This document shows, one piece after another, positions 1 through 62,281 of a stretch of 64,000 bases of DNA. Source of the stretch: Oscillospiraceae bacterium (GTDB lineage: Bacteria; Bacillota; Clostridia; Oscillospirales; Ruminococcaceae); assembly GCA_902779915.1 (NCBI GenBank), contig CACZDM010000006.1, positions 66 through 64,065 on the forward strand, written 5' to 3'. Below the pieces are notes generated by a model. That model was not told the DNA's origin. It made no database searches and saw nothing but the letters and a program-made list of their open reading frames with translations. The translations under genes were made by a program, and so were the position numbers. Within the stretch, counting starts at the first letter, position 1. Each line of letters begins with the position of its first letter.

Positions 1-127
1 GCGGCGCTTAAATTGGCTCCCCGCATGGTTTTTTTGGAACGCGATTGAGGGCGGCTTGAAAGAGACGGTTTTTAACCAAAGAGTCGGATATTTTAAGCAG
101 GAGCGATTGAGGGGACAAATCTAACCC
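1..127 (-). repeat. Foldback-element family, A-arm copy cut by the window edge; outer terminus at 111-127
   Basis: Reverse complement reads GGGTTAGATTTGTCCCCTCAATCGCTCCTGCTTAAAATATCCGACTCTTTG..., nearly identical to the start of the copy at 16965. Confidence 0.75.
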
Positions 128-160
128 TAATCTAAAATACAAATCGTATTTTTTAAGATT

Positions 161-215
161 GAGTTATGTTTGTCCCCTCGTCTTTGATAAACCCGCATTT
201 TTAAAAAAATATCAG
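161..215 (+). repeat. Short internally deleted fragment of the same family (terminus-like GAGTTATGTTTGTCCCC ... CAGACGCCAAA)
   Basis: Terminus-like 17-mer at 161-177. The end resembles the CTGACGCCAAA apex of the 16965 copy. It overlaps the gpsA stop codon. Confidence 0.4.
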
Positions 216-3601: not shown

Positions 3602-3630
3602 ATTATATCACAACCCATAAAATTTGTCAA
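3602..3630 (-). promoter_or_regulatory. Sigma-70-type promoter for rpmF
   Basis: On the minus strand: TTGACA, 17 nt, TATAAT. The -35 overlaps the pgi stop codon. Confidence 0.5.
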
Positions 3631-5084: not shown

Positions 5085-5532
5085 GGGTTATATTTGTCCC
5101 CTTGAGTTTTATTTCTTAAAATATCAGGCTCTTTATCTAAAATTTCAAACAATTTAAAATATCCTTGATCGCGTTTTAAAAAATAATGCAAAAGCAAGCA
5201 AACCGCCGCCAGCTCCTGGCTAACTGTAATATTAAATCCTCCTAAGCCTCCAAGCCATTTTGAAAATTTCCTTAACAAGCGGTAGGCTGGCGTCCTCAAG
5301 AAAGATCCAATTCAAGGCGTTTACCTACCACTTGTTATGGACATTTTAAAAAATCCGAGCATTTTTAATTGGGTTTGACCTGCGCAGTTGATGGTGAGCC
5401 GGCGGCGTTTTAGTTTATTTGATCGCTCGTTTTGGAATGTGTTTTTGAGGACAGTTTAAAATAGACGGAGAGTATTAAACTGGAAAGCCACCAACCTTGA
5501 GCAACGAAGCTTTATTGGAACAAATATAATTA
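5085..5532 (+). repeat. Full-length foldback element (A arm about 5085-5300, B arm about 5301-5532)
   Basis: GGGTTATATTTGTCCCC at the left end and GGAACAAATATAAT at the right end. The arms pair, e.g. CGCCGCCAGCTC with GAGCCGGCGGCG and AACAAGCGGTAGG with CCTACCACTTGTT. Confidence 0.8.
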
Positions 5533-16170: not shown

Positions 16171-16893
16171 CTACCTTATTATATTATATTCTCTCATCGA
16201 AGTCGAATCGCCGCTTTTTCCAAAAATAAAATGGTCAACCAAAGTCATGTTCAAAGCCCGAAGCGCCGCAACCAGATCCTGGGTTTTGATTTTGTCCTGA
16301 ATTGAGGGGGTTGCGACTCCATTGGGGTGGTTATGAGCCAAAACTATCCGATCAACATTCCAACGCATCGCAAATCTAACAATGAGTTCACACGAAATGT
16401 TAACAGCCTTCCTGCTTCCCTGATTTAAAAGTTCGCAAGCAACAAAGCGCGCAAAATCATCCATTCCAGCAACAAACAAAACTTCGTTAACCCTGCCGAC
16501 AAATTTAGCTTTAAAAAATTTTTTCCATTTGTCCGGAGTGTCCATAATTTCGCTGGGCTTGGCCATATCTTCGCTATATAAACGAAACATTTGGGGCATT
16601 TGCTTTAGCAAAATCGCAACATGCTCCCCAACGCCTTTAACTTGAAGCAAAAGCTCATATGGAGCGTTCATAACCCCCGCAATCGAGCCAAACTGTTCTA
16701 TTAAATCATGAGCTAATTTATTAGTGTCGCGCTTGGGTATTGCGTAAAACAGCAAAAGTTCCAGAGCTTCGTGGGGCTCAAAGCCATCAAAACCTGTCTT
16801 TAAAAATCTATTCTTCATCCTGCTTCTGTGGCCTGAATGCGAGTGCTGCGCCAAAATATATCCCCACCCATCCGACTTTATATTTATATACAT
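16171..16893 (-). CDS. radC: RadC-like JAB-domain protein
   Basis: GHRSR..RF N-terminal region, HhH-like segment and C-terminal HNHPNG JAMM-like motif. Exact start uncertain. Confidence 0.85.
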   Translation of the reverse strand: MYINIKSDGWGYILAQHSHSGHRSRMKNRFLKTGFDGFEPHEALELLLFYAIPKRDTNKLAHDLIEQFGSIAGVMNAPYELLLQVKGVGEHVAILLKQMPQMFRLYSEDMAKPSEIMDTPDKWKKFFKAKFVGRVNEVLFVAGMDDFARFVACELLNQGSRKAVNISCELIVRFAMRWNVDRIVLAHNHPNGVATPSIQDKIKTQDLVAALRALNMTLVDHFIFGKSGDSTSMREYNIIR

Positions 16894-16964: not shown

Positions 16965-17184
16965 GGGTTATATTTGTCCCCTCAATCGCTCCTGCTTAAA
17001 ATATCCGACTCTTTGTCTAAAATTTTCGATGAATTAAGCCGTCCTCGATCACGTTCCAAAAAACCATGCAAAAACCGATTAAACCGCCTCCGTCTCACAA
17101 CTGACTGTAATATTAAACCTCCCTCAAGCTCAAGTCCCTTTGAAAGCGTCCGTGAGAAGTGGTAGGTTGGCGTCCTGACGCCAA
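16965..17184 (+). repeat. Half copy (A arm only) of the foldback family, ending in the small hairpin TTGGCGTC-CT-GACGCCAA
   Basis: Starts GGGTTATATTTGTCCCC and carries all A-arm blocks (CTTAAAATATCCGACTCTTTG, CTCACAACTGACTGTAATATTAAAC, GTGGTAGGTTGGCG). No B arm follows. Confidence 0.8.
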
Positions 17185-17289
17185 ATACAAATTGTATATT
17201 TTAAAAATATTTCGCGCACTAATCTCAGCCTTGCAAAATTGACTCCAATAAATTTTGTAAATATTTTTTAATTTTTTTTAAATTAGGTA

Positions 17290-30506: not shown

Positions 30507-30956
30507 GGTTTATATTTGTCCCAATAAACCTTCTTTTTTAAAAACCCAACTCTTTGCTCAAAAACCCCAACAATTTCAAATATGCTTGATCGCGTTAAAA
30601 AAACAATTCAAAAATCAATCCAAGCGCCGCCAGCTCACAACCAACTGTATTATTCAACTTTTCTCAACCACAAACCATTTTGAAAGCTTCCTCAACAAGC
30701 GGTAGGTTAATGCCCGCGAGATCGGCCGGTTTTAAGCTGGAACGCTTTTTGACCTTGACTTGTTAAGGAATTTTCGAGAAAGCTGGGAGTTAAAAACAAG
30801 GTCAGATTGCATGGTTTATGGTTGGCAGGAGGCGTTTTAAGGCATTTTATCAATGTTTTTTCAAACGCCCTTCGAGGACATCCTAATTTGAGACGGTTTT
30901 TTTCAATCAAATTCCCAGATTTTCAAGAAGAAGGATTAAGGAAACAAATATAACCC
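30507..30956 (+). repeat. Full-length foldback element (A arm about 30507-30722, B arm about 30723-30956)
   Basis: GGTTTATATTTGTCCC at the left end and GGAAACAAATATAACCC at the right end. A-arm blocks present: GATCGCGTT, AAGCGCCGCCAGCTCACAACCAACTGTATTATT, AACAAGCGGTAGG. Confidence 0.8.
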
Positions 30957-39707: not shown

Positions 39708-39923
39708 CTAACCCCTCCTCAACTCTTGCAGATATAGAACAAAAAGCCGCCTACTGTGATGTGAATAATACACACTTCCAAAACATCACAAACGAAACAA
39801 CATCATTTTACAACTTAAAACAATTCTTGTCAATACCATAATCAAATATTTGTTAAATATCACCCAAAATAACACATTTTAAAGGTGTGAAATAGTGCAA
39901 TTATGCTAAAAATCAGAAACATT

Positions 39924-40844
39924 CTAATTCTGCTTCTCGTGTAAAACCACTACTTCTTCCTCTTCATGCGCCTCGTTCAGCACTACGACATCTTCCTCTT
40001 CTTCATGCGCCGCGTTCAGCACTACAACGTCTTCTTCTTCGTCATGCGCCGCGTTCAGCACCACAACGTCTTCTTCTTCGTCATGCGCCGCGTTCAGCAC
40101 TACAACGTCTTCTTCTTCGTCATGCGCCGCGTTCAGCACTACGACATCTTCCTCTTCGTCATGCGCCGCGTTCAGCACTACAGCGTCTTCTTCTTCACCA
40201 TGCGCCGCGTTCAGCACCACAACGTCTTCTCCTTCACCATGCGCCGCGTTCAGCACCACAACGTCTTCTCCTTCGTCATGCGCTGCATTCAGCACCACAA
40301 CGTCTTCTTCTTCGTCATGCGTCGCGTTCAGCACCACAACGTCTTCTCCTTCGTCATGCGCTGCATTCAGCACCACAACGTCTTCTTCTTCGTCATGCGC
40401 CGCATTCAGCATCACAACGTCTTCTTCTTCGTCATGCGCCGCGTTCAGCACCACAACGTCTTCCTCAGCGTCATGCGCCGCGTTCAGCACTACAACGTCT
40501 TCCTCAGCGTCATGCGCCGCCTTCAGCACCACAACGTCTTCCTCAGCGTCATGCGCCTCGTGCAGCACCACAACGTCTTCCTCAGCGTCATGCGCCGCAT
40601 TCAGCACCACAACGTCTTCCTCAGCGTCATGCGCCGCGTTCAGCACTACAACGTCTTCTTCTTCACCATGCGCCGCATTCAGCACCACAACGTCTTCTCC
40701 TTCGTCATGCGCCTCATTCAGCACCACAACGTTTTTTTCTTTCTCGCTATCAGCATAAACTGCACTATTAAAAGCATGTATGGGCGAAACACCCGCAACA
40801 ATCAAAAAACAAGTCAACTTTGAAACCAGTTTTTTTAACACCAT
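39924..40844 (-). CDS. Secreted acidic tandem-repeat protein: signal peptide plus about 20 copies of VVVLNAAHDEEED
   Basis: ATG 9 nt after GGAGG, hydrophobic signal sequence (..CFLIVAGVSPIHAFNS), then 13-aa repeats to the C-terminus. Confidence 0.7.
   Translation of the reverse strand: MVLKKLVSKLTCFLIVAGVSPIHAFNSAVYADSEKEKNVVVLNEAHDEGEDVVVLNAAHGEEEDVVVLNAAHDAEEDVVVLNAAHDAEEDVVVLHEAHDAEEDVVVLKAAHDAEEDVVVLNAAHDAEEDVVVLNAAHDEEEDVVMLNAAHDEEEDVVVLNAAHDEGEDVVVLNATHDEEEDVVVLNAAHDEGEDVVVLNAAHGEGEDVVVLNAAHGEEEDAVVLNAAHDEEEDVVVLNAAHDEEEDVVVLNAAHDEEEDVVVLNAAHDEEEDVVVLNAAHEEEEDVVVLNEAHEEEEVVVLHEKQN
39939..40730 (-). repeat. 39-bp tandem repeat array, about 20 units, in frame within the CDS
   Basis: Plus-strand unit GTCATGCGCCGCGTTCAGCACCACAACGTCTTCTTCTTC, with point variants mainly in the acidic-codon part. 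Confidence 0.95.
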
Positions 40845-40883
40845 TAAAAGCAACCTCCGTTTAATAAAAAATTCACGCCCCTG

Positions 40884-42515: not shown

Positions 42516-42550
42516 GAAAACTCTGTGAAATTTCATAATTTTTTCGATCA

Positions 42551-42620
42551 GGTTATGTTTGGCCAATAAAACCCCTTGCTTAAAAAGTCCGTGACAATCG
42601 GCACGGGTTAACGACCTTAA
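42551..42620 (+). repeat. Degenerate mini-fragment of the foldback family
   Basis: GGTTATGTTTGGCCAATAAAACC..CTTGCTTAAAAAGTCCGTGACAATCGGCACGG resembles terminus plus AATAAACC plus the GTCCGTGACAAGCGGTAGG block. Confidence 0.35.
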
Positions 42621-42726: not shown

Positions 42727-42773
42727 CGAATTTTCAAAACATATTTTAAATTATTTTGTTAGGAGGATTTGTT

Positions 42774-45700
42774 ATGTCACATTCATTAAAAATTATTTTA
42801 AATGGCGGATTAAAAAGGCTAATTTCAAGTTTAATTTGTTTGTCCATGGTTTTATCGACTTTTCCATTATTGTTGCTTAAAAGCATGGTTTGCGCAGGCG
42901 GTGATGATACTGCAACTATTACACTGAGTAATTTAAATGACTGTAATAATTTAAATAGCAATTTGTCAACTGCCAACCTGAACGGTAAAACAACTATAAA
43001 TATTGTTATAGGCACAAATTTTACTATTGACAACACATCGACTCCAACAATGACTACTGGTTCTGGGAATAAATACCTTTTCGATTTCACCGACAATAGA
43101 TTTAAGGACAAAACTATAAATATATCGGGAAATTCAACTCCGAGATCAATAAGTATATCAGATCCGAATTTGTTTTTCCTGTGTATGAAGTATGCAACAG
43201 TAAATTTACAAGACATAATAATTAACGGACAAGGTCAAAACAGGCCGGGAGCTTTTATTAATTTGCAAAAAAGCGGAAACTCAATTCCAATATTAAACGT
43301 GGGCAAAGGTGTAAAAATTCAAAATTGCATCAATAAAGGAAACGATGGAACCTCTGGACAAGACGGGGAGGATGCTTTGGGAGGCGCAATATATTGCAAA
43401 GGCGGTCAAGTGACAATTGGCGTTGGCAGTGGCGTCAATCTTGCCAGCAACGCGCAAATTACTTCATGTCAAGCTATTGGAGGAAATGGCGGAAAAGGAG
43501 CAGATGGAGTGTGGGGATGCGATGGCCAAGACGGCGGCAATGGCGGCAGAGGCAAAGGCGGAGCGATTTATTGCTGTGGCGGCGGAAAAATTGTCCTCAA
43601 TAACGGAACAATTAGCAATTGTTTAAGCGTGTATGGAGATGGAGGAGATGGAGGAGATGGAGGAGATGGAGGAGATGCACTTCCAACCACAAGCGTTAAA
43701 AAACTAACGTATAGTATATACTATGTATATTATGAAAATACTACGGAAACGAAAAAAGAAAGATTAAATATCACCCAACTGGAAAACGGCGGCAATGGGG
43801 GACGTGGCGGCAATGGGGGACGTGGCGGCAATGGGGGACGCGGCAGCAATGGCAAAAGCGCAAAAAACTCTGATCCCAATTGGAATACCAAAAGCAAGTT
43901 AATAGAACTAGATTCAGGTATTAAGCACCGTGACCAATGTGATGGATTTAGTGGCGGAAACGGAGGAAACGGTGGCGACGGTGGCATGGGAACAGAAACT
44001 AAAGGCGGAGACGGCGGAGACGGCGGAAAAGGTGGAATGGGAAACTTATTAGGATGTGGAGGTAACGGAGGTAATGGTGGTAATGGTGGTAATGGTGGTA
44101 ATGGTGGTAATGGTAATTATAATTATCTTGATAAAACCATTTACGATGACCTAAATACTAAATCGATAAACTCATTTTTTCTCAACTTTTCACTTCCTGA
44201 ATACAAATCTATTAACCATGGTGGCAATGGTGGCAATGGTGGCAATGGTCACAATGGCGGCAATGGCGGCAATGGTGGTATTGGAGCACAGAAAATAATT
44301 ATAAACTCTATGATTATGCCTGATAATCAACTCATATTTTACGCTTCTAGCGGAAACGGCGGAAGCGGCGGCATGGGAATCAACGCAGGAAACGGCGGCA
44401 AGGCCGGAATGTTGATCGTGTCAAGGTGGACAAAAAACAAACACGAAATTATAAAGGTAAAGGATGATAACAGTATGGTTGGCAAAGCCGGCCAAGAAGG
44501 ACACGTGATTGAAAAAGAAACAGTGCCAATTATCGGATTTTATGAAGAAGGCGGCGGCGGTGGAGGCGCGATATGCATTGAAGATGGAGAATTAAGACTA
44601 ATGGACGGCAAAATTGAAAACTGTTCATCTAATGAGAGAGGAAGCAATATCTTTATTGGACCCTATGTTAAGTGTAGTTTTAGCACAGATTTAGTAATTT
44701 CTAAACCGTCCCAATTTAAAAATCCTAATGACCAAAACAGAACATTGTCAGTTAGTGATTTACAAAAATACTATAATTCTCCCCAAGATAAAACGATTGG
44801 ATATCCCGGAGTTTATTGCAGCAGTCATTTTAGACAAGCATATTATAAACTGGTTTTTGTTAATGCTGACGATCCTTCAGAAAAATTATATGTTCAAGAT
44901 TTTGCAACCGAGAGAAACGGCTATATTGTTCCCAGCAGACCCGGATATAAATTCAATAAACTGACATATGGCGATGACAATAAAGATATTGAAACAAAAC
45001 AAACAGGTGATACGTATACGTTCGATTTAAACGACAATATTATTAATACTGAAAAAAATTGGGTTATAACTCTTAAAGCTAAATACGATAAACTATACAC
45101 AATAAATTATATTTGTAAAAATAAGCGTATCAGATCAGCAAAAGATCAAACAATTGGTCTTTCCTTTGATCTTGCGAATCCTGTTCCAAAGGATGATGCA
45201 TTTGAGAAAGCAATCGAGCCAGACCAGGGTTATAAATTTTCTAAAATCACCTATGGCCGTGATAATGTTCCAATTCCCAAAGAAGGCCTAACCCGTGATG
45301 GGTTGATAAATCAAGCTGATGGCGATGTGATAACGTTCATGATAAATCATGAGCCAAAACAATACAGTTTGGAATATGTTGATGAAAATAAAGACCCCAT
45401 GACCGTTAAAGACTTGGATGGCAATCAAGCCGATTCGCAACAAGTCAAATTCGGCGATGATATTAAAACAATGACGCCTAAGGATGAAAAACTGGGATAT
45501 GATTTTAAATGCTGGCATGTTTTGGATAAAAATGGAAATGAATTGAAGGAGAAGGGCCAACCGATTGACTTCGAAACAGCAAAAGCTTCTTGGAAAACTT
45601 TATCAAATGCTGCTGATGATGATAATAAAATAAAATTAAAAGCGGTCTACACGCCAAAAAAATATATTATAAAATATAACACAAGGAGTGACAAGACTAT

Positions 45701-45950
45701 TTATGATAAGGAATTTTATATTGGCAAGGATAAAGACTCACAATTAGACCAAAAAATTGCGAATAGCTACATCTCAAAGGCATATTCAAACGGCAGAACT
45801 AAAAATACTATTAGTAATAAATATTGGAAATATGGCGTAAATGGTTCATTTGATGCAAACAATAAACCAACTTGGAGAGAATTGATAAAAAGCGCGATTG
45901 TTGACGAATACGGCAACAACCTGATCATTTTGGAAGCTGTATATCAATAA
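42774..45950 (+). CDS. Large secreted protein (paralog P2): shared N-domain, GGAIY beta-helix coils interrupted by GGN/GGD glycine-rich blocks, C-terminal Listeria/Bacteroides-type (Flg_new-like) repeats
   Basis: ATG 7 nt after AGGAGG, signal peptide LKRLISSLICLSMV, KYLFDFTDNRFKDKTINI, GGAIYC motifs, G-rich blocks, GY.F..(W/L) repeat modules. Confidence 0.75.
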   Translation: MSHSLKIILNGGLKRLISSLICLSMVLSTFPLLLLKSMVCAGGDDTATITLSNLNDCNNLNSNLSTANLNGKTTINIVIGTNFTIDNTSTPTMTTGSGNKYLFDFTDNRFKDKTINISGNSTPRSISISDPNLFFLCMKYATVNLQDIIINGQGQNRPGAFINLQKSGNSIPILNVGKGVKIQNCINKGNDGTSGQDGEDALGGAIYCKGGQVTIGVGSGVNLASNAQITSCQAIGGNGGKGADGVWGCDGQDGGNGGRGKGGAIYCCGGGKIVLNNGTISNCLSVYGDGGDGGDGGDGGDALPTTSVKKLTYSIYYVYYENTTETKKERLNITQLENGGNGGRGGNGGRGGNGGRGSNGKSAKNSDPNWNTKSKLIELDSGIKHRDQCDGFSGGNGGNGGDGGMGTETKGGDGGDGGKGGMGNLLGCGGNGGNGGNGGNGGNGGNGNYNYLDKTIYDDLNTKSINSFFLNFSLPEYKSINHGGNGGNGGNGHNGGNGGNGGIGAQKIIINSMIMPDNQLIFYASSGNGGSGGMGINAGNGGKAGMLIVSRWTKNKHEIIKVKDDNSMVGKAGQEGHVIEKETVPIIGFYEEGGGGGGAICIEDGELRLMDGKIENCSSNERGSNIFIGPYVKCSFSTDLVISKPSQFKNPNDQNRTLSVSDLQKYYNSPQDKTIGYPGVYCSSHFRQAYYKLVFVNADDPSEKLYVQDFATERNGYIVPSRPGYKFNKLTYGDDNKDIETKQTGDTYTFDLNDNIINTEKNWVITLKAKYDKLYTINYICKNKRIRSAKDQTIGLSFDLANPVPKDDAFEKAIEPDQGYKFSKITYGRDNVPIPKEGLTRDGLINQADGDVITFMINHEPKQYSLEYVDENKDPMTVKDLDGNQADSQQVKFGDDIKTMTPKDEKLGYDFKCWHVLDKNGNELKEKGQPIDFETAKASWKTLSNAADDDNKIKLKAVYTPKKYIIKYNTRSDKTIYDKEFYIGKDKDSQLDQKIANSYISKAYSNGRTKNTISNKYWKYGVNGSFDANNKPTWRELIKSAIVDEYGNNLIILEAVYQ
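43635..43676 (+). repeat. 9-bp in-frame microsatellite (GGAGATGGA x about 4.7) encoding (GDG)n
   Basis: Read directly from the sequence. Confidence 0.9.
43788..43841 (+). repeat. 18-bp in-frame tandem repeat x3 (GGCGGCAATGGGGGACGT) encoding GGNGGR x3
   Basis: Read directly from the sequence. Confidence 0.9.
44058..44117 (+). repeat. 9-bp in-frame microsatellite (GGTAATGGT, 5 perfect units plus degenerate flanks) encoding (GNG)n
   Basis: Read directly; the perfect units span 44070-44114. Confidence 0.9.
44220..44279 (+). repeat. 9-bp in-frame repeat (GGTGGCAAT / GGCGGCAAT, about 6.5 units) encoding (GGN)n
   Basis: Read directly from the sequence. Confidence 0.9.
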
Positions 45951-45979
45951 GCTCAAAAACACAAAATATCACAAAAACA

Positions 45980-46017
45980 AACCAACCGTCAGCCCGACAA
46001 AGAGCTGGTGGTTGGTT
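45980..46017. terminator. Bidirectional hairpin between convergent P2 and P3
   Basis: AACCAACCGTCAGC, 10-nt loop, GCTGGTGGTTGGTT; T-run after it on the plus strand and A-run before it. Confidence 0.6.
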
Positions 46018-46052
46018 TTGAAATGAAATTCTTGCTCTGTAAATTTAAAATC

Positions 46053-48497
46053 TTAAGCGTTTCCAAAAAAACTCTGATTTGTAATAACGGAGCCGCTTTC
46101 GTATGCTATGCCATTGACATAGGAAGGATTTTTTGGAGAAGACTTTTTCGCTTCTTGAGGCTCGATCTTTTCGTATGTGGCTCTGAGAACGATCACATTA
46201 TTGCCTGCCGAATCAACCATTGCGCTTTTTATTAATGTGTCCCATGTGACTCCATTAACATCCGCATCACTTCCGTCAGGTTGGGTATATACCCACTTTT
46301 TAAATTCATAACCTAATTTACTTGGTTTTGTAGAAGATACTTCAACATAAGAGTTAAGATTTTTATCTTGACTAATTGTGTAAGTTGTGGGATCAACCAC
46401 ATCTGTGCTATATGGATTATATTTTATAGTATATGTTTTTGGCGCGTAGACCGCTTTTAATTTTATGGTGTTATTATCATCAGCAGCATTTGCTAAAGTT
46501 TCCCAAGAAGCTTTTGCCGTTTCAAAGTCAATAGGATCGCCATTATCCTTCAATTCATTTCCATCACTGCCCAAAACATGCCAGCATTTAAAATCATATC
46601 CCAGTTTTTTAAATGGGGTGACTGCTTTAATGTCTTCGCCGAACTTGACTTCTTGAGTTTGAATTTGAGAACCGCCGGCATCAGTAACATTTATAGATGT
46701 GGTACCGTCCTCATCCATATACATTATGTTATATGTTCTTGGCTCATGATTTAAAAAAATAGATATCACATCACCAACTGCAGCTTGACTCAAGCTGTCC
46801 CAAATTGTCGCAGTGTCTCCCGAAGCAACATACTTCAAAGCGTCGCCATAAGTAATTTCCGAAAATGTATAACCAAGCTTTGGCGTTGCTATTTCATTAA
46901 GTTTTTTATTGTCATCCACAGCGATATTATTCCAATTAGCATCCATAATCGCGCTAATGAGCGTTTGATCGCGTATACAGTCTTTCTTTGTTGCAACAAC
47001 TTTATTGTCATAAATATATTGGATTGTATATATTTTTTTATACGTGGCGGTTAAAGTTATCACGCCATCCTGCTTTGCGTTTTGTATAATATCACCGTCT
47101 AATTTAAATTTATTATCCGCCACATCTATTGAGTTTTCTCCTTCATCATTTAAGCTAATAAGTCTATATCCTGCTCTCTCAGGAACACACACATCAGAAT
47201 ACTTGGTGAACATTCCTTGCCCTAATTTTTCACTCGTACCAGCCTCAACAAACTGAATGTTATAATTTGGATTTGCTCGAACAATTCCATCATCATTATA
47301 AATTCCTTTATATCCATAAACTTCATTAGCCGTGCTATTGTGGTCGCAGGAAGCGTGCTCCTCAGGCAATACAATAGTTAACAGTTCTAATTGTGTATAC
47401 GGAAGCATCAAAACGCCTTTATTATATATAGCATCTGCGCGTTCAGTTTCCTCTTCAGAAAAAGTGACATGACAACCAGTAATATAGCATTTGTTAATAG
47501 TTAATGCTCCAGTACTGTTGTTATATATAGCGCCTCCAAAATCATTGGCAAAACAGTTCTCAATTTTGCCACTGTCAATAGTCACCACTCCAACACTGTC
47601 GTTATATATTGCTCCACCAACACTCGCATTTTGACCTTCTGATATGTTAATGTGACCATTAATCGAGCTTTCTCCCGCAATTATCAGCTGATTAAGGTTA
47701 TATATAGCACCTCCACTTTTCACGCAAGCACAATCGTTAATCTCGCATTTTTCATCCATTATCAATATTCCAGTGTTATATACCGCGCCTCCGCACCCGT
47801 TTTCGCCCTCACAAGTGCAATTACTAATTTTACTGTTTTGTAAAAACTTCAAATTTCCAGCATTGTTTATCGCGCCTCCATAGCCACTTTGCTCAGAATT
47901 ACAACAATCTTGAATGGTTGATGAACGTGTTTCTAGTTCCGACGCCAGCCCAACATTAATGAAAGCGCCTGCTCTTTCTATTGCACTATCACTTCGGCCA
48001 TCAATCACAATATTTTTCAAAATAACTTTGCAATTTTGCATATTCAAGAAAAATAAAGCAGCATTATCTATGGTTATTGTGCTGCGTCCTCCACTTTTTG
48101 TCCCATCTATAGTTATCGTTTTATCTTTAAATCGCTTATCAGTGAAATCAAAAAGATATTTATTTCCATCACTCCCGGTCGTCATTGTTGGAACATTATC
48201 CACTGTATAGGAGGAATTGACGTTAATATCTTCGGTTACATTAATAACTATTTCATCTGGCGCATCATCCGCAACCAAGGCAGTCTTGCTCAAAGGGCCC
48301 TCTGTTTCACTCATCCAAGTGGCCACACTACCGATCTTGTCTGATTTCAGTTCAATAGTTATGTCAGAATCCGTTGCCCAAACCGATCCTTGAAACATAT
48401 GCATTGGAAAAGTTGCCGAAACCATCATCAAATAAATTAAAGTTGAAATTAATCTTTTTAAGCCGCCCTTTAAATTAATTTTTAATAAACCTTGCAT
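46053..48497 (-). CDS. Large secreted PMP-like beta-helix protein (paralog P3) with C-terminal Listeria/Bacteroides-type repeats
   Basis: ATG after GGAGAGG, signal peptide LKRLISTLIYLMMV, KYLFDFTDKRFKDKTITI, six or more GGAIYN/GGAINN coils. The C-terminal half is collinear with P2. Confidence 0.75.
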   Translation of the reverse strand: MQGLLKINLKGGLKRLISTLIYLMMVSATFPMHMFQGSVWATDSDITIELKSDKIGSVATWMSETEGPLSKTALVADDAPDEIVINVTEDINVNSSYTVDNVPTMTTGSDGNKYLFDFTDKRFKDKTITIDGTKSGGRSTITIDNAALFFLNMQNCKVILKNIVIDGRSDSAIERAGAFINVGLASELETRSSTIQDCCNSEQSGYGGAINNAGNLKFLQNSKISNCTCEGENGCGGAVYNTGILIMDEKCEINDCACVKSGGAIYNLNQLIIAGESSINGHINISEGQNASVGGAIYNDSVGVVTIDSGKIENCFANDFGGAIYNNSTGALTINKCYITGCHVTFSEEETERADAIYNKGVLMLPYTQLELLTIVLPEEHASCDHNSTANEVYGYKGIYNDDGIVRANPNYNIQFVEAGTSEKLGQGMFTKYSDVCVPERAGYRLISLNDEGENSIDVADNKFKLDGDIIQNAKQDGVITLTATYKKIYTIQYIYDNKVVATKKDCIRDQTLISAIMDANWNNIAVDDNKKLNEIATPKLGYTFSEITYGDALKYVASGDTATIWDSLSQAAVGDVISIFLNHEPRTYNIMYMDEDGTTSINVTDAGGSQIQTQEVKFGEDIKAVTPFKKLGYDFKCWHVLGSDGNELKDNGDPIDFETAKASWETLANAADDNNTIKLKAVYAPKTYTIKYNPYSTDVVDPTTYTISQDKNLNSYVEVSSTKPSKLGYEFKKWVYTQPDGSDADVNGVTWDTLIKSAMVDSAGNNVIVLRATYEKIEPQEAKKSSPKNPSYVNGIAYESGSVITNQSFFGNA

Positions 48498-48544
48498 AAA
48501 AACCTCTCCTTCTTTGAACATTTAAAATATGTTTTTAATATTTA

Positions 48545-50773: not shown

Positions 50774-50839
50774 TTTTCAAGCAAAGAGTTTGGATTTTTT
50801 AAAAGTTCAAAGAGGGTTTTATTGGAATAAATATAGCCC
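50774..50839 (-). repeat. Truncated foldback-family fragment (terminus plus about 50 nt) in the mntR leader region
   Basis: Minus strand GGGCTATATTTATTCCAATAAAACCCTCTTTGAACTTTTAAAAAATCCAAACTCTTTGCTTGAAAA, collinear with the first about 65 nt of the 30507 copy. Confidence 0.55.
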
Positions 50840-50960
50840 AATTAAATCATATAAATTAGTGGATTTTTTTTACAGGCCCCTTTGTTTTTTACATACTAAC
50901 TATATATCACGCCATTGTCAAGCCGACGAAAATTTTTTCTTTCTCACTTTGCGAATTGTC

Positions 50961-53787: not shown

Positions 53788-54669
53788 ATGAAAAATTTTG
53801 AATATAACCTATATAATCCCAAACATATTAAAAAATTGCTGAGTGAGCATGGTTTTTTTGTTTCAAAGTCTCTTGGGCAAAATTTTTTGACAAATTCATC
53901 AGTTGGGGCGAAAATGGCCAAACTGTCGGGAGCGGAGGATGGATTTGTTTTGGAGATCGGGCCCGGAATTGGCGCTTTAACAAAAGAATTGGCAAAAGTT
54001 TCGAAAAAAGTTTGCAGCATTGAAATAGATTCCAGGTTGATCCCAATTTTGAACCAAACGCTTTTGGGGTTTAAAAATGTCGAGATAATAAACGAAGATA
54101 TTTTGAAAACAGACATAAAAACTCTAATTCGCGAAAAATCCGATGGAATGAAAGCGGTTGTGTGCGCTAATTTGCCATATTACATCACCTCGCCAATCAT
54201 TATGCGCCTTTTAGAGCTGGATCTTGGCGTTAAAGCAATAACTGTTATGGTTCAAAAGGAGGCGGGGCGTCGAATTTGCGCAGAGCCTGGGAGAAGAGAG
54301 TGCGGCGCGATCAGTTTAGCAGTCAGATACTATTCAACGCCTAGACTTCTTTTTGATTTGCCGAATTCTTCTTTTTTCCCCAAGCCGAATGTTGACAGCT
54401 CGGTGATTCGCCTAGAAATTAATCAAATCGCCCCAGTTAAAATAAAAAATCGGGATGGCTTTTTTAGGTTGGTTCGGGTCGCTTTTTCGCAAAGAAGAAA
54501 AATTTTGATAAATCCCGTTGCTTCAAGCTTTAACATATCAAAAGATCATCTTAGAAATATTTTGCTGAATTTGAAAATTCCCCCAAGCGCTCGAGCAGAA
54601 CAGCTTTCCCTGGAGCAATTTGCAAGCATTTCGAATTCAATTGAAAATTTTTTATGTATTCGCAAATAA
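53788..54669 (+). CDS. rsmA: 16S rRNA (adenine1518/1519-N6)-dimethyltransferase
   Basis: GQNFL, EIGPGIGALT SAM motif, NLPYYI. Confidence 0.9.
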   Translation: MKNFEYNLYNPKHIKKLLSEHGFFVSKSLGQNFLTNSSVGAKMAKLSGAEDGFVLEIGPGIGALTKELAKVSKKVCSIEIDSRLIPILNQTLLGFKNVEIINEDILKTDIKTLIREKSDGMKAVVCANLPYYITSPIIMRLLELDLGVKAITVMVQKEAGRRICAEPGRRECGAISLAVRYYSTPRLLFDLPNSSFFPKPNVDSSVIRLEINQIAPVKIKNRDGFFRLVRVAFSQRRKILINPVASSFNISKDHLRNILLNLKIPPSARAEQLSLEQFASISNSIENFLCIRK

Positions 54670-54721
54670 TGCTGCGATATAAAAAAACAACCGCTGTGAG
54701 TTAAATTTTTTCTTAGTTTTA

Positions 54722-55146
54722 GGTTATATTTGTCCCATTAATCCTTCTTTAGCCAAAACTTGCTCTTTAATTTAAAAACCTGGCCCAAATCAATCCTTCC
54801 TCAAACAAGCTCTAAAAAAACAATAGCGATTGGCCGCTTAATCTTTTGCCGGCCCACCATCAACCACGACCTTAAAACCAATTTAAAACGCCCCCTCTTT
54901 TGCCGCCAATAACAAGCCAAGGTCAAAACTCTTGAGGGCGCAAACCTACCACCTGTCGCGGACGCTTCCAAAGAAACTTTTGCTTGAGTAAAGTTTAATA
55001 TTACAGTTAGTTGTGAGATGGCGGCGCTTTTTTGGTTTTTGCATGGCTTTTTGAAACGTGATCAAGGATATTGTAATTTATTGAACTTTTTAGATAAATA
55101 ATCAGATATTTTAAGCGAGGAGTTTTAATGGGACAAATATAACCCA
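54722..55146 (-). repeat. Full-length foldback element with perfect 16-nt terminal inverted repeat (B arm 54722-54930, A arm 54931-55146 on the minus strand)
   Basis: GGTTATATTTGTCCCA at the left end and TGGGACAAATATAACC at the right end. The A arm carries CCATCTCACAACTAACTGTAATATTAAAC and GGTGGTAGGTTTGCGCCCTCAAG. Confidence 0.85.
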
Positions 55147-55233
55147 ATAAAATAATACAATCAGTTTTTGAGATTTCAATTACCATTAGTTGTCAACCTT
55201 CAAGATTTACAATTTTTGATGTTTTGGAATAAC

Positions 55234-55262
55234 TTGACTTTGAAAATGACATGATATATAAT
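55234..55262 (+). promoter_or_regulatory. Promoter of pflB
   Basis: TTGACT, 17 nt, TATAAT. Confidence 0.5.
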
Positions 55263-55325
55263 AATGGACAGATTTTGTTTTTTATGATTCGAAATTTCTT
55301 TAAAATAAAATAGGGAGATGGTGCT

Positions 55326-57539
55326 GTGAACTTTAGGAAAGGAAACTGGAGCTCGGAAATTGACGTTAGAGATTTTATTGTTTTGAACTACACTCCTTAT
55401 GATGGCGATGAAAGTTTTTTGAGCGGACCAAGCAAAAAAACTAAAAAATTGTGGAGCGTTGTTAAAGATCTGCTAGACAAAGAAAGAGAAGCTGGTGGCG
55501 TTTTGTCAATAGACGCAAAAACCATCTCCAACATAGACGCTTTTGAGCCCGGATATATAGACAAAGAAAACGAGTCAATCGTTGGCCTCCAAACCTCCCG
55601 TCCCCTTGAGCGAGCAATCATGCCATATGGCGGAATAAGAATGGTTAAAAATTCTTTGAGTGCATATAAAATGCAACTTGATCCCTCAATTGAAGAAATT
55701 TTTACCCACAGAAAAACTCACAATGACGGCGTTTTTGATGCATACACAGATGAAATGAAAAAAGCCCGCCACTATGGGATAATCACCGGTTTGCCGGATG
55801 CGTATGGAAGAGGCAGGATCATTGGCGACTATCGAAGGGTTGCGCTTTATGGGGTTGATCGCTTAATTGAGAGCAAAACTTTGGCTCTTGATGATCTGGA
55901 CGTTGATTCTATGACTGAGGACATTATTCGAAAAAGGGAGGAAACCAACGAGCAGATACGCGCGCTTAAATCGCTCAAAAACATGGCAGCAAGATATGGT
56001 TTTGACATTTCCTTACCAGCAAAAGATTCAAAACAGGCAATACAGTGGCTGTATTTTGCATATTTGGCCGCAACTAAAGATCAAAATGGCGCGGCGATGT
56101 CTTTGGGAAGAGTTTCGACATTTTTAGACATATATTCCGAGCGCGACTTGGCAAAGGGCATATATAGCGAAGAGGAAATTCAAGAGTTTGTCGATCATTT
56201 TGTCATGAAGCTGCGGCTGATTAAATTTTTGCGAACTCCTGCGTATGACCAGCTTTTTTCAGGCGATCCAACTTGGGTGACCGAAGCTATAGGCGGCGTT
56301 TGCGTTGATGGGCGCCATATGGTCACTAAAATGTCATATCGTTTTCTACACACACTGACAAATTTAGGCCATGCTCCAGAGCCAAATTTGACGATTTTGT
56401 GGTCTGAAAATTTACCTCAAAATTTCAAGCTATACGCAAGTTCTGTTTCCATAAACACTTCCTCAATTCAATATGAAAATGACGATGTTATGAGGGCAAA
56501 GCTTGGAGATGACTATGCTATTGCGTGTTGCGTTTCGCCAATGAAAGTTGGAAAACAGATGCAGTTTTTTGGCGCAAGATGCAACTTGGCTAAAGCTTTG
56601 TTATACGCGCTAAATGGTGGAAAAGACGAAATGGCTGGAGAACAGGTTGCCCCAGAAACTTGCCCAGTTGGAGATGGCAAGTTGCTTTATGATGATGTGT
56701 TGAAAAAATATGGAGCGGTTTTAGACTGGCTTGCAAAATTATATATTAATGCGCTAAACATTATACACTATATGCACGATAAGTATTGCTATGAAAAAAT
56801 CCAAATGGCGCTTCACGACGACGATATCACAAGAACTATGGCAGGCGGAATAGCAGGGCTTTCGGTTGTTGCGGACAGCTTAAGCGCGATAAAATATGCA
56901 GATGTCTATCCTGTTCGAAATTCCCAGGGGCTGATTGTTGACTTTAAAATCCAAGGGCAGTATCCCGCTTTTGGAAACAATGACGATCGAGTTGACAAAA
57001 TCGCAATTGACGTCGCGAAAGGATTCATGAAGCGCTTGAGAAAACACAAAGCCTATAGAAACAGCAGGCCAACCATGTCCATATTAACCATAACATCCAA
57101 CGTTGTGTATGGAAAAAAGACAGGCTCAACCCCAGACGGAAGAAAAGCGGGCGTTCCATTTGCTCCTGGCGCAAATCCGATGCATGGACGGGATAGCAAC
57201 GGCTCTGTTGCTTCAATGAGATCGGTTGCAAAGCTTCCGTTTGAATATGCCCAAGACGGAATTTCATACACATTTTCAATTGTCCCTGGCGCGCTGGGAA
57301 AAAATTCAAACGACAAAAAGCAAAATTTAGTCAGCTTGCTTGATGGATATTTTGCAGACCGAGGCCACCACATAAACGTTAACGTTATAGATAAAGACGT
57401 TTTAATCGACGCGATGGACCACCCTGAGAAATACCCTCAACTGACAATCCGCGTTTCTGGATATGCTGTTAATTTTGTTAAACTGACAAGAGAGCAACAG
57501 CTGGACGTTTTGAGCAGGACATTCCACTCGAGGCTGTGA
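55326..57539 (+). CDS. pflB: Formate C-acetyltransferase (pyruvate formate-lyase)
   Basis: 737 aa, active-site ACCVSPM, C-terminal glycyl-radical motif RVSGYAV. GTG start as in the ORF track. Confidence 0.92.
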
Positions 57540-58304: not shown

Positions 58305-58775
58305 TTAAAAATTTTTACAGAGATTTGCCATTTCTATTGCAGACATAGCCGCATCAAACCCTTTGTTTCCGGCTTTTGTTCCGGCTCTTTCGACCGCTTG
58401 CTCAAGGTTGTCTGTTGTCAAAATCCCAAAAATAACGGGGATATCTTGGCCAAGAGAAACGCTTGCAATCCCTTTGGAAACTTCTGCGCAGACGTGGTCA
58501 TAATGTGATGTTGCCCCGCGAACAACCGCTCCAAGGCATATTATTGCATCATATTTTTTTGATTTTGCCATTTTGCTCGCAATCAGCGGAATCTCAAACG
58601 CCCCCGGGACCCACGCAACGTCTATATGATCTTCCAAAACACCGTGACGATTTAAGCAGTCCGCCGCCCCTTCAAGCAATTTTTGAGTTATAAATTCATT
58701 AAATCTTGAAACAACAATCCCAAATTTTAGATCAGTTGCAGTTAATTTCCCATTAAAAACTCTCATAAAATTCAA
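58305..58775 (-). CDS. ribH: 6,7-dimethyl-8-ribityllumazine synthase
   Basis: 156 aa, WVPGAFEIP motif. Confidence 0.9.
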
Positions 58776-58782
58776 ATCCTTT

Positions 58783-59976
58783 CTATAAAATATGACCCAT
58801 TTTTTCTTTTTTAGTCTTTAAATAAAATTCATTATGCATATTGGGCTTTATCCTAATTGGAATTCGCTTTGAAACCTCTATGCCATATTTTTTCAAATCA
58901 TTAACTTTTTTTGGATTGTTTGTTATTAATTTAACGCTTCCAACCCCCAGGTCTTTCAAAATCTGCGCTCCTAAAAAATATTCACGCGGATCTTCCTCAA
59001 ATCCCAGCGCAACGTTAGCCTGAGCGGTGTCGAGGCCTTTTTCTTGAAGGTGATATGCTCGAAGTTTATTTAAAAGGCCAATCCCCCTCCCCTCCTGGCG
59101 AAGATATATTAAAACGCCCTTTTTTGCTTTTTTGATCATGTCCATTGACGCCAAAAATTGTTCGCCACAGTCACATTTTTTAGACCCGAAAACATCGCCG
59201 GTTATACACTCAGAGTGAATCCTGCAGAGAATTTCATCTCCATCATCAACCTCTCCCATGACCAAAGCGACGTGGCTTTGGTTTGCTATTTCATACGCAT
59301 ATCCATGTAAAACGAAATCGCCATATTTTGTCGGCAGATCAACAGCCTCAATTTTTTTAATCAATTTTTCATGAGCTTTTCTATATTCAGCCAGCTCACT
59401 GATAGATATATATACTAAATCAAATTTTTTAGAAAACGCTTCCAGCTCAGATCTTTGCATCATCTCCCCATCATCGTTCATGATTTCACAACACAATCCG
59501 CATTCTTCAAGTCCCGCCAACCTGCAAAGATCAACAGTTGCTTCGGTATGGCCTGCTCTTTGCAAAACTCCACCCGATCTTGCAACCAGAGGAAACATAT
59601 GGCCAGGTCTTCGAAAGTCGGACGCTTGAGAGCTTTTTTTAACAAATTCAGTCGCCGTCATTGAGCGATCGCCAGCAGAAATTCCAGTTGAAGTTTTTAT
59701 GTGATCGATGGAAACTGTGAATGCAGTGTTGTGGTTATCAGTGTTTTCAAAGGTCATTGGCGCCAATTTAAATTTATCTGCAAATTTTTGGGATATTGGC
59801 ATGCAAATGAGCCCCCGCCCATGAGTTGCCATGAAATTCACATTTTGTTTAGTTGCAAATTCAGCTGAGCATATTAAATCCCCTTCATTTTCTCGATTTT
59901 TATCATCTGAAACGATAATTATTTTTCCATCTCGAAGATTTTTAAGCGCAAGCTGCATTTTTTCTTTGTTTTTCAT
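58783..59976 (-). CDS. ribBA: Bifunctional 3,4-dihydroxy-2-butanone-4-phosphate synthase / GTP cyclohydrolase II
   Basis: DHBP synthase N-half (RENEGDL) and GCH-II C-half (CxC...[11 protein letters not shown]). Confidence 0.9.
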
Positions 59977-60004
59977 TTTAAAACGTCTCCCTTAAAATGT
60001 CGAA

Positions 60005-60658
60005 TCAACCAAAAAACCCAGCATTAATCAGACTTTGTTTGGTCAATTTGCTGGAATTTTTTTGGGTGGAACCTGCGTTTAGCAGTTTTTCAACATGCTT
60101 TGCCACTATATCGGCCTCTATATTAACAACAAGGTTTTTTTCAAACAATCCAGCAGTCGTTTGCGAAAGAGTGTGTGGAATAATTGAAACTGTGAAACTT
60201 TTTTCATCAACCGAGACAACAGTCAGACTTATCCCATCAACACAAACTGATCCTTTTTTTACTATATATTTTAAAATTTTTGACGGCGCTTTAATTTTAT
60301 ATGAAATCGATATCCCATCACGCCTTTTTTCAGCCACAACTCCAACGCCGTCAATGTGGCCTGTGACGATATGCCCATCAAAGCGTCCCGACGCCGAAAC
60401 TGCGCGCTCCAAATTAACCAAACTTCCAACGCAAAAAAATTTTGCCGCGCTGTTTTTTATGGTCTCATTCATTATGTCAACAGCAAAAATTTTAGATTTG
60501 ATATCAACAATAGTCAAACATATCCCATTAACAGCAACGCTATCACCAATATTTAACTGATTTGATATTATACTAGAGCAAACATTCATTTTCATCCCAT
60601 TGCAATTTTTTTCAATATATGTTACTTTTCCAATCTCTTCAACAATTCCCGTAAACAA
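60005..60658 (-). CDS. ribE: Riboflavin synthase alpha chain
   Basis: (M)FTGIVEEIG start and duplicated lumazine-binding repeats. Start moved to the TTG giving the canonical MFTGIVE N-terminus. Confidence 0.88.
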   Translation of the reverse strand: MFTGIVEEIGKVTYIEKNCNGMKMNVCSSIISNQLNIGDSVAVNGICLTIVDIKSKIFAVDIMNETIKNSAAKFFCVGSLVNLERAVSASGRFDGHIVTGHIDGVGVVAEKRRDGISISYKIKAPSKILKYIVKKGSVCVDGISLTVVSVDEKSFTVSIIPHTLSQTTAGLFEKNLVVNIEADIVAKHVEKLLNAGSTQKNSSKLTKQSLINAGFFG

Positions 60659-60662
60659 AAAA

Positions 60663-61763
60663 TCACTTCCCAAAATGACTGGATCTATATTCAATCAAAA
60701 CATCATCGCCCAAAACTTGAATTTTGCTCCTTTTGAGGGCGGTGGCTTGACTCAAATTTTCAAATCCTTGCCCTCCAACAGGCGTTTTAGCCATAACCCC
60801 TCCAATAATTTTTGGCGCAATATATGAATATATAACGTTTATTAGATTATTTTCGACAAAGCTGTGATTTATTTCTGAGCCTCCCTCAACCAAAACGCTG
60901 TCAATCCCGATTTGATATAATTTTTTCAAAAGCTCTTTCAAATCAACTCGCCCCTTGACGCTCCGAACTTTTAAAATTTTAACGCCTGCTCTTTGAAGCT
61001 TGGCAATTTTTTTGCTATTTTCAACAGAACATGCAATATATGTCTTTTGAATTTTAGCAGTTTTGACAATTTTTGAATTTAAAGGCGTTTTCAAATGGGT
61101 GTCACAAACTATTCGAACGGGATCTCTTTTTTGCGGCAATCTGCAGTTTAGTTGAGGGTTGTCAGATATTACAGTGTTGATGCCAACCAAAACAGCGCCA
61201 TACACACTTCTTAAATAATGAGCATGTCGGCGAGAGAGTTCACCTGTGATCCACTTGGAATTTCCTGTATATGTTGAAATTTTCCCGTCCGCAGTCATCC
61301 CGAATTTTAGCGCAACAAAAGGCATTTTAGTCTTCATATTGTGGAAAAAAATTTCATTTAATTTTTCACATTTTTTTTGCATGCATCCAACGCAAACTTC
61401 TATTCCACTTTTTTTCAGCAGCTTTATCCCTTTGCCAAAAACAAGCGGATTGGGATCCAGCGTTCCAACAACAACCCTTTTGATTTGGCTGTTTATTATT
61501 AAATTTGCGCATGGAGGCGTTTTGCCATAATGCGAACAAGGCTCTAGGTTAACATAAAGCGTTGCTCCATAGGCCGAGCCTTTGAGGTTTAAAATAGCGT
61601 TTCGTTCTGCATGATATCCGCCGAAAAATTTGTGATATCCTGTAGATAATATTTGCCCATCTTTAACAATAACCGCCCCAACCAGAGGATTAGTTTTAAC
61701 ATATCCTTTGCCTTTTTTTGCAAGATTTAAAGCTAAATTCATATATTTTGAATCAATTTTCAA
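60663..61763 (-). CDS. ribD: Bifunctional riboflavin biosynthesis deaminase/reductase
   Basis: HAE...PCSH....PPC CMP/dCMP deaminase zinc motif plus a C-terminal reductase domain. TTG start. Confidence 0.9.
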   Translation of the reverse strand: MKIDSKYMNLALNLAKKGKGYVKTNPLVGAVIVKDGQILSTGYHKFFGGYHAERNAILNLKGSAYGATLYVNLEPCSHYGKTPPCANLIINSQIKRVVVGTLDPNPLVFGKGIKLLKKSGIEVCVGCMQKKCEKLNEIFFHNMKTKMPFVALKFGMTADGKISTYTGNSKWITGELSRRHAHYLRSVYGAVLVGINTVISDNPQLNCRLPQKRDPVRIVCDTHLKTPLNSKIVKTAKIQKTYIACSVENSKKIAKLQRAGVKILKVRSVKGRVDLKELLKKLYQIGIDSVLVEGGSEINHSFVENNLINVIYSYIAPKIIGGVMAKTPVGGQGFENLSQATALKRSKIQVLGDDVLIEYRSSHFGK

Positions 61764-61815
61764 AAAAACACCACACTTTATCGCAACACATATAACATCA
61801 AAAGTAACATTATTA

Positions 61816-61844
61816 AATATACAATATTATTTTGAAAATGTCAA
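61816..61844 (-). promoter_or_regulatory. Candidate rib operon promoter (leader only about 45 nt)
   Basis: Minus strand: TTGACA, 17 nt, TATATT. Confidence 0.45.
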
Positions 61845-61888
61845 TTGATTTAAATCAAAAATCCCCTGCTTGATTTTTTTACTGGATT

Positions 61889-62105
61889 GGGTTACATTTG
61901 TCCTAATAACTTCTCTCACTTAAAATATGCGACTTTTTGCTTAAAAAAACAATATATTATGATATCATTTATTGCGTTCCAAAAAACAATGCAAAAGTGG
62001 AATAAGCGCCTCCATCTCACAACTAACTGTAATATTCAATCTTGCGGGGGCTCCCAGTCCATTTAAAACCGTCCGTAACAAGCGGTAGGCTTGCGCCCTC
62101 AAAAG
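61889..62105 (+). repeat. Half copy (A arm) of the foldback family; a degenerate remainder may extend to about 62190
   Basis: GGGTTACATTTGTCC..., CTTAAAATATGCGAC, CCATCTCACAACTAACTGTAATATT, AACAAGCGGTAGGCTTGCGCCCTCAA. Confidence 0.8.
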
Positions 62106-62281
62106 CTCTTTTTGATTAAAAAAATTTTATGAAACCCTCAACAAACAATAAACTGTGAGTGATGACCAAAGCTTTATTACTGATAAAACTGGATGGCTGC
62201 GAAAATATCAAATTATTTCAGCGGATTTGATTTATTTTTTATCATCAAGAAAATTTATATTAATTATTTTTTTATTCACTG

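Follow-up and report, generated by a model that had tools for sequence, protein, structure and literature searches.

A polar, modular intergenic repeat family in a narrow lineage of uncultured rumen Clostridia

The repeat in the window and the build of its unit

The DNA considered here is a stretch of 64,000 nucleotides (nt) from Oscillospiraceae bacterium (assembly GCA_902779915.1, contig CACZDM010000006.1, positions 66 to 64,065), called the window below, and the subject is a short repeat that recurs between its genes. The window itself matches rumen metagenome contigs, and the genes called on these are ordinary housekeeping ones, among them RrnaAD, pflB and its activase, the rib operon, uvrAB, pgi, rpmE, dnaG and rpoD. 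Between RrnaAD and pflB lies the copy that first drew attention, 54722-55146, which the original prediction had described as one of six copies of an interspersed family. That observation is confirmed. The box GGGTTATATTTGTCCC, with up to 3 mismatches allowed, has 11 matches in the window against 0.44 expected, a count reached in 0 of 100 shuffles; a match stands in every copy that had been named, and all six of those copies are homologous. In 54722-55146 the perfect inverted repeat of 16 nt is plain from the letters themselves (GGTTATATTTGTCCCA at 54722, TGGGACAAATATAACC at 55130), and the long strings said to be common to several copies are present by both repeat finding and alignment. All window copies are intergenic, no transposase is found among the called window genes, and the non-coding nature of the family and its conserved end box are both supported. 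The family proves to be a polar, modular and ancient DNA repeat placed between operons, labile in the number of its arrayed modules and found at rearrangement breakpoints.

The basic element differs from the one first proposed. The "full copies" of 425-450 nt are each two units joined tail to tail, and the real unit is about 215 nt long. A profile hidden Markov model (HMM) finds nine units and three fragments in the window (Table 1), and the density, put earlier at about one copy per 10 kb, becomes about one unit per 7 kb. Each unit consists of a box (positions 1-16), an L module (17-120) that is rich in A-tracts, and an R module (121-216) with two conserved blocks. The box is nearly invariant over 16-18 bp (TTGGGTTATATTTGTCCC). 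It does stand at the ends of copies, as predicted, but it is not the true end: a looser conserved extension continues outward for about 9-28 bp, with TTTGGATTT just outside the box and a AATTGTAT/ACAATT box about 22 bp off, and the outward run AAnAAAATAATACAATTAGTGGTTTTT is present in about 40% of copies. Information content is highest at the box, with smaller peaks at 35-37, 78-84, 95-100, 121-136, 175-180 and 191-201, and short GTCC..CTCAA-like motifs, read by eye, recur near positions 12, 124 and 210. The tail is defined and unlike the box end (...GGTAGG n5 GTCCTYGAGRGC). Mean pairwise identity among units is 58%, and there are many subfamilies.

How units are put together is clearer in a wider sample, 57 loci (given L numbers) of two related rumen genomes, RUG13514 and RUG14392, in which the HMM gives about 180 matches. 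Three arrangements occur: a unit by itself, two units of different subfamilies joined tail to tail, and a boxed unit with as many as eight R or L-R modules in tandem behind it. In the pairs the boxes point outward; one arm (A-type) is near the family consensus and the other (B-type) belongs to a distinct recurrent subfamily. Many of the matches lie in tandem arrays, an arrangement that the window lacks. These come in two periods: 94 nt, where a boxed unit precedes up to eight head-to-tail copies of model positions ~121-216 (for example L018, L053, L047, L048 and L059), and 206 nt, where model positions ~12/28-216 are repeated (for example L046, L007, L054 and L031). Tandem Repeats Finder reports 7.6 copies at 78% matches for the first and 5.9 copies at 94% for the second. 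Singles and tandem arrays are as common in these loci as tail-to-tail pairs, and inverted boxes at both ends are seen only in the tail-to-tail composites; a single or a direct array has just the one box, and its tail is unrelated to it. Protein coding was rejected because neither period is a multiple of 3 and the consensus unit, on our own reading, has stop codons in both orientations. A CRISPR-like spacer array was rejected too: the variable part of the R module consists of variants of one sequence rather than unique spacers.

Other features accompany some units. Truncated pieces of a unit, which begin at model positions 103-148, recur right beside a B-type box and in the opposite orientation (L022 1347-1399, L019 3366-3409, L029 4156-4226, L043 4051-4093), and it looks as though B units had inserted into older units or recombined with them. 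Window 17185-17197, directly past the tail of the single unit 16965-17184, is a perfect palindrome of 13 nt, ATACAAATTGTAT; about 10 other copies have it as well, 16 nt outward from the box. The sequence ATACAAnTTGTAT was considered as a palindromic operator adjoining the box on its outer side and dropped, since only about 10 of 115 copies have it at position -16 and its total count is at chance level.

Table 1. Repeat units, fragments and one neighbouring promoter in the 64-kb window.
Position	Strand	Feature	Remarks
1..154	-	Unit cut by the window edge	Box 112-127 (GGGTTAGATTTGTCCC); outward extension reaches 154; remainder of the unit seen in L161; HMM match 127-1
138..211	+	Short unit fragment, degenerate box 161-176	Head to head with unit 1..154; HMM E 7.8e-5
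5085..5303	+	A-type unit	Box 5085-5100 toward pgi (3627-4973, - strand), whose start is 112 nt off
5306..5532	-	B-type partner unit	Tail to tail with 5085..5303; box 5517-5532 degenerate (TAATTATATTTGTTCC), the next gene's stop 28 nt away
16965..17184	+	Single A-type unit in a divergent intergenic region	Box toward radC (16171-16893, - strand); tRNA genes past the tail
30507..30725	+	A-type unit	Box toward rpmE (gene call from the matching contig L160)
30730..30956	-	B-type partner unit	Tail to tail with 30507..30725
42539..42591	+	Weak match to outward extension, box and start of L module; doubtful	HMM E 2.9e-5
50774..50861	-	Degenerate unit remnant, box-like 50824-50839	Matching RUG13514 site (L043 2-179) retains at least 176 nt of unit
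54722..54930	+	B-type unit of the copy first described	53 nt separate the stop of the RrnaAD-family rRNA adenine dimethylase gene from the start of the box
54929..55146	-	A-type unit of the copy first described	Box 55130-55145 toward pflB (55326-57539, + strand)
55234..55262	+	Canonical pflB promoter TTGACT-17-TATAAT	88 nt beyond the box; host DNA, outside the repeat
61889..62108	+	Single A-type unit	Box toward ribD operon (60663-61763, - strand), promoter 61844-61816

Lineage, change in place and polarity

The family is restricted to uncultured rumen Clostridia of one very narrow lineage. A scan for the exact 18-mer TTGGGTTATATTTGTCCC in one genome per species, over 185,579 species, gave 60 loci, of which 55 fall in two metagenome-assembled genomes (MAGs) named "Ruminococcaceae bacterium", RUG13514 and RUG14392, whose genes are 92-97% identical to those of the window. 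The five remaining loci are isolated single matches in unrelated genomes, and four of them contain no other part of a unit. No unit was found in 80 loci (828 kb) of the next-nearest metagenome relatives, which share at most 56% protein identity with the dimethylase of the window, nor in viral contigs, phage records or plasmids; a phage origin was set aside because the 16-mer matches in viral contigs come without the rest of the unit. The box string had no match in the literature searched. It is on these negatives, together with the scan itself, that the restriction to one lineage rests. Contigs of the MAGs often begin or end inside a unit or array (L010, L014, L026, L030, L041, L043, L045, L049, L053), and the repeat thus appears to be a main cause of assembly breaks in these genomes.

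Units have been kept at the same sites since before the three genomes diverged. Orthologous A units are 76-88% identical where the promoter DNA just outside them is 92-96% identical, so most of the unit drifts about like unconstrained sequence. The drift is uneven: over nine orthologous pairs, divergence per position is 2% in the box, 12-16% at 121-150, 8-16% at 181-200 and 20-34% elsewhere. Orthologous sites also differ by rearrangements. The unit at window 16965 is single, whereas its ortholog in L018 is a unit with eight R modules, a 3.6-kb segment with a surface-protein gene and another composite; array number is likewise unequal between the orthologous sites L062 and L039. At 4217-4912 of L058 (RUG13514) an open reading frame (ORF) of 231 residues without a Pfam domain lies between inverted units, and L029 (RUG14392) has a plain tail-to-tail pair at 4156-4693. 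A 121-nt indel containing a unit fragment adjoins the B box at window 54711, and synteny breaks exactly at the box remnant after gpsA. An apparent in-place inversion of unit 1-127 relative to L051 is really a synteny break as well, with different genes downstream.

The units are also polar with respect to their neighbours. Of the box ends that have an ORF as neighbour, 111 in all, 86 are directed at a gene start and 25 at a gene end (binomial p = 5e-9). Singles between co-directional genes have the box toward the downstream gene in about 10 of 11 cases, arrays nearly always reach away from the gene that the box faces, and B-type boxes often begin 2-60 nt from an upstream stop codon. The units occupy the space between an operon's terminator and the promoter of the operon that follows, and it is this promoter that the box end points to. 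Two changes of A-type unit orientation fall within 10 kb of the window, 55146(-) and then 61889(+), and both follow the adjacent gene, so that replication direction cannot be the cause of the orientation. A strong canonical promoter, often TTGACA-17-TGnTATAAT, is directed outward in 71 of 113 outward flanks, its -35 element starting 20-130 nt beyond the box. Because this distance varies and the flanks are homologous only within small paralog groups, the outward promoters belong to the host genes and were rejected as a part of the element. The genes downstream of the box are generic operon leaders: pflB, pgi, radC, rpmE and ribD in the window and, by their N-terminal sequences, rpsB, rpsL, rplU, infC, efp, purA, glyA, pfkA, prs, lon and htpG among those of the related loci. 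A regulon was rejected on this ground. Two promoter readings of the box itself were dropped: for a Bacteroidetes-type promoter (TAnnTTTG) the spacing of TTTG is wrong and the organism uses canonical TTGACA/TATAAT, and for a sigma-54 promoter (TGGGTT..TTGT) the spacing, judged by eye only, is off by one.

Several gene families recur near the units. The multi-copy ORF families of the loci consist only of secreted alanine-rich proteins without a Pfam domain, large surface proteins and sigma factors. The secreted family, considered as a possible transposase and rejected as such, has nine members of 300-350 residues (among them L008 295-1299, L036 1259-2302, L034 4041-4955 and L047 267-1118), and in six of these a unit tail stands 80-105 nt from the 3' terminator. 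A six-member surface-protein family, often just past unit tails in the related loci, includes two very large convergent ORFs at window 42756-48521, of 1064 (+) and 822 (-) residues, which have inverted homologous segments (45487-45679 with 46417-46609, 193 nt, 89% complementary; 42761-42896 with 48375-48510); the larger contains GGNGGN-type repeats at 43494-44407. The sigma-70-family genes at L059 1479-2150 and 3071-3787, L049 6385-7056 and L019 7296-8000 cluster by sequence as paralogs, and the one scanned (L059 1479-2150, 223 residues) has sigma-70 regions 2, 3 and 4. They may serve in sporulation; the window also encodes SpoIID. Elsewhere in the window a tandem array with a 39-nt period (39829-40869, about 27 copies, 60-91% identical to the reference copy) sits inside an ORF of 309 residues (39924-40853, - strand), where it would encode a 13-residue protein repeat. 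Ahead of the ribD operon (58305-61763, - strand) Rfam reports no flavin mononucleotide (FMN) riboswitch in window 61764-61888, and by eye the gap between the predicted ribD promoter (61844-61816) and the ORF start looks too short for one.

Explanations considered

The interpretation first offered, either a MITE (miniature inverted-repeat transposable element) or foldback transposon or else a rod-shaped structured RNA, is partly supported, although the classical forms of both readings fail their defining tests. In the transposon reading, the palindromic copy of 425-450 nt would be a non-autonomous element moved by a transposase encoded elsewhere, and single units would be its decayed halves. 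Copies are indeed short, AT-rich, non-coding, intergenic and multiple, and composites have inverted boxes at their termini, perfect over 16 nt at 54722-55146. However, none of 28 composites has a direct repeat of at least 2 nt at the box edge that could be a target-site duplication (a 2-nt repeat at offset 2 in 4 of the 28 is at chance level), no syntenic comparison has an empty site, the unit being present on both sides each time, and young copies are absent too, the best within-genome paralog identity having a median of 0.71 and a maximum of 0.88 if one local tandem pair is excepted. No autonomous copy turned up in the window genes and the multi-copy ORF families of the 57 loci, about 0.42 Mb of three genomes; the MAGs are fragmented, so a transposase gene may have escaped. 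Two genes between inverted units were tried as the autonomous element and rejected (the 231-residue ORF of L058, and a 217-residue ORF of L031 that is DUF6338), neither being multi-copy or transposase-like. The foldback itself does not hold as the element, given that singles and arrays are not rarer than pairs, that paired arms come from different subfamilies and have not co-evolved, and that conserved sequence passes beyond the supposed terminus. We therefore regard a MITE or foldback transposon as improbable. The same palindromes underlie the other reading, a rod of about 200 bp formed as RNA or single-stranded DNA. The three window composites do fold better than shuffles (z of -2.4, -4.1 and -2.2), as the predicted hairpins would, but two related units in inverted order give such stability anyway, and outside the box the arms are only 0.54 identical within a pair against 0.525 for A versus B across pairs (p = 0.12, 15 pairs). 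With within-pair identity no higher than that between pairs, nothing maintains complementarity within the pair. Units by themselves fold like shuffles, with z of +1.28 and +0.32 for two single window units and means over 24 single units of +0.31 on the forward and +0.24 on the reverse strand. RNAalifold gives -7.4 kcal/mol for five units, without compensatory pairs, -2.9 and 0.0 kcal/mol for 40 full units and 0.0 kcal/mol on both strands for 126 R modules, essentially nothing on either strand; the strongest mutual-information pairs are subfamily signals and not Watson-Crick. Rfam 15 at the gathering score finds only tRNAs in the whole window, and at E up to 10 it finds only chance-level matches in 54600-55300, so that the repeat matches no Rfam family. 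Most loci, moreover, are singles or direct arrays. The arm comparison largely refutes the rod, which is the least probable explanation by far.

Two further explanations dispense with the palindrome. The units could be the decayed remains of a non-autonomous HUH-type single-strand or rolling-circle element (IS200/IS605-, IS91- or Helitron-like), with the box, able to form a short GGG/CCC stem with an AT-rich loop of 10 nt, as its origin end, and with one-ended or read-through events building the arrays. One strongly conserved end with a different defined tail would be expected of such an element, as would single units without terminal inverted repeats or target duplication, a strong orientation bias and tandem arrays behind one boxed unit. 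Yet the stem is only 3-6 bp and does not covary, the orientation tracks the adjacent gene rather than replication, the internal direct motifs can explain the arrays by themselves, no HUH, Y1 or Y2 gene was seen in the 0.42 Mb of available DNA, and the lack of young copies counts here as well; we think this origin quite unlikely. Alternatively, the units could be multi-copy genes for an unstructured, C-rich small RNA, starting near unit position 44 and read away from the neighbouring gene, with the box supplying a -35 element (TTGTCC) and a TAAAAT 17 nt downstream the -10; arrays would yield multi-module RNAs, acting as sponges or anti-Shine-Dalgarno regulators. A promoter scan does select TTGTCC-17-TAAAAT in three window units, in 63 of 91 units the second hexamer, at 16-18 nt spacing, still has its A (position 2) and its T (position 6), the forward strand is rich in C (A.32, C.25, T.27, G.16) with structure no greater than in shuffles, and arrays behind one boxed unit resemble one promoter with repeated modules. 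But the would-be -10 is most conserved at its central AAA and not at the key A and T, the T of position 6 differs in about half of ortholog pairs, and the match is poor beside the real promoters of these genomes, which are near-perfect TTGACA-17-TGnTATAAT. The whole 16-nt box is invariant and not TTG alone, and no consistent terminator follows the tail. Such an RNA is doubtful, although it fares best among the rivals.

The explanation we favour, at even odds (a probability of roughly 0.5), is an old, lineage-restricted, modular intergenic DNA repeat of the kind of BOX or the bacterial interspersed mosaic elements (BIMEs), equipped with a protein-recognition box and reshaped by recombination. 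Like pneumococcal BOX or E. coli BIMEs, it would act at the level of DNA. It would have spread in a single ancestral expansion by a mechanism that leaves no target duplication, and the length of arrays would now be changed by unequal recombination between internal direct motifs, for which the GTCC..CTCAA-like motifs are obvious substrates; ectopic recombination between units would reshuffle the neighbouring genes. The box, together with the similar ACAAWT motif about 22 bp (two helical turns) away, may be the recognition site of a protein, and this site would keep the unit polar through a direction-dependent effect on the adjacent promoter, or through tolerance by it. The unit may in this way insulate or tune an adjacent housekeeping promoter. 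A number of points weigh against this explanation. The box is equally intact in copies that face gene starts and gene ends (p = 0.36), a poor fit to a purely promoter-linked role, and the spacing of 20-130 nt between box and promoter is ill-suited to a classical activator site. The weak inward pair TTGTCC-17-TAAAAT in many units makes their transcription possible. Loci L007-L066 were retrieved by the exact 18-mer, which inflates box conservation there (that of the internal R blocks is unaffected). In unbiased samples the contrast is more modest: the box has 11 mismatches in 9 x 16 positions in the window (92% conserved, against 63% for the whole-alignment mean) and, by our own count, differs at 7 of 112 positions (6%) between window and RUG orthologs, where whole A units differ by 12-24%. 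Even with the bias allowed for, the box changes several times more slowly than the whole unit. The A-tracts of the L module are in phase at about 10.3 bp, but as the copies are homologous this amounts to about one observation and is weak evidence. Finally, the DNA read covers about 0.42 Mb of the three genomes, and since no binding protein or mobilising enzyme was identified in it, the recognition-site and insulator roles are ones that we infer.

Relation to known repeats and implications

The family belongs to a known class, the bacterial interspersed intergenic repeats, and lies outside any named family, the comparison with BOX being one of architecture only. The repetitive extragenic palindromes (REPs) and BIMEs of E. 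coli are mosaics of long standing, extragenic and fixed, in which a few types of motif recur in variable order and number; they show no sign of current mobility, and BIMEs are bound by the host proteins IHF and gyrase. Individual REPs, which are connected with RAYT transposases, are hairpins of 20-40 nt found at the 3' end of a transcription unit. The present family shares the mosaic, extragenic, currently immobile character of these elements but, unlike REPs, has units of 215 nt that lack a hairpin and are polar toward the next promoter. Pneumococcal BOX elements are closer in build. They have the form boxA-boxB(n)-boxC, the number of tandem internal modules varies between strains at the same site, unequal crossover has been proposed as the cause, and BOX modules are reported to alter downstream expression in an orientation-dependent way (Croucher et al. 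2011, PMC3049150). Both families are small, non-coding intergenic repeats made of modules, restricted to a species group and mostly upstream of genes, and in both the number of tandem modules varies at fixed loci (here window 16965 against L018, and L062 against L039). BOX, however, has inverted-repeat ends (boxA and boxC) that resemble ISSpn2 and a strongly paired predicted RNA, whereas the present family has a single conserved box, a tail of another sequence and no structure by prediction; its amplified modules come after one boxed unit, on the distal side, and those of BOX stand between two end modules.

MITEs offer further points of comparison. BrickBuilt of Porphyromonas gingivalis is a MITE with an internal minisatellite, and segments of BrickBuilt have promoter activity (Klein et al. 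2015, PMC4596501). It is like the present family in having a leader, tandem repeats and a tail, in being always intergenic, tens to hundreds of nucleotides from coding sequence, and in its limited host range; it differs in its 23-nt repeats, small inverted-repeat ends and about 19 copies per genome, against periods of 94 and 206 nt, singles without inverted ends and about one unit per 7 kb here. The Correia elements of Neisseria have terminal inverted repeats of 26 bp, a TA target duplication and clear insertion polymorphism, and these and other MITEs can alter expression next to promoters (both as summarised in PMC3049150). They resemble the present family as abundant intergenic repeats that can adjoin promoters; terminal inverted repeats of that kind, target duplication and insertion polymorphism were not found here. 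What sets the family apart from BOX, BrickBuilt and BIMEs is its one box, its lack of hairpin potential, its modules of 94 and 206 nt and its strict polarity toward the next promoter.

If the favoured explanation is right, about 2-3% of these small rumen genomes would be an undescribed repeat family that marks operon boundaries, breaks MAG assemblies and serves as a recombination substrate reshuffling surface-protein genes among close relatives. Most bacterial interspersed repeats are defined by hairpins; strict polarity toward promoters, and the slower change of one 16-bp box within otherwise drifting units, are unusual among them and would make the family well suited to the study of a repeat retained for its role at the level of DNA. 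The box is also a specific marker of this lineage in metagenomes. A bolder view, which we consider unlikely, is that the units are no parasitic leftovers but a host-maintained, lineage-specific layer of promoter architecture or, alternatively, a template for unstructured C-rich RNA present in about 150 copies per genome. Were the first of these true, many housekeeping operons of these bacteria would be preceded by a polar upstream module made of a protein-binding box, phased A-tract DNA and amplifiable R modules; a dedicated DNA-binding protein would read the units, and array length would be a tuning knob.

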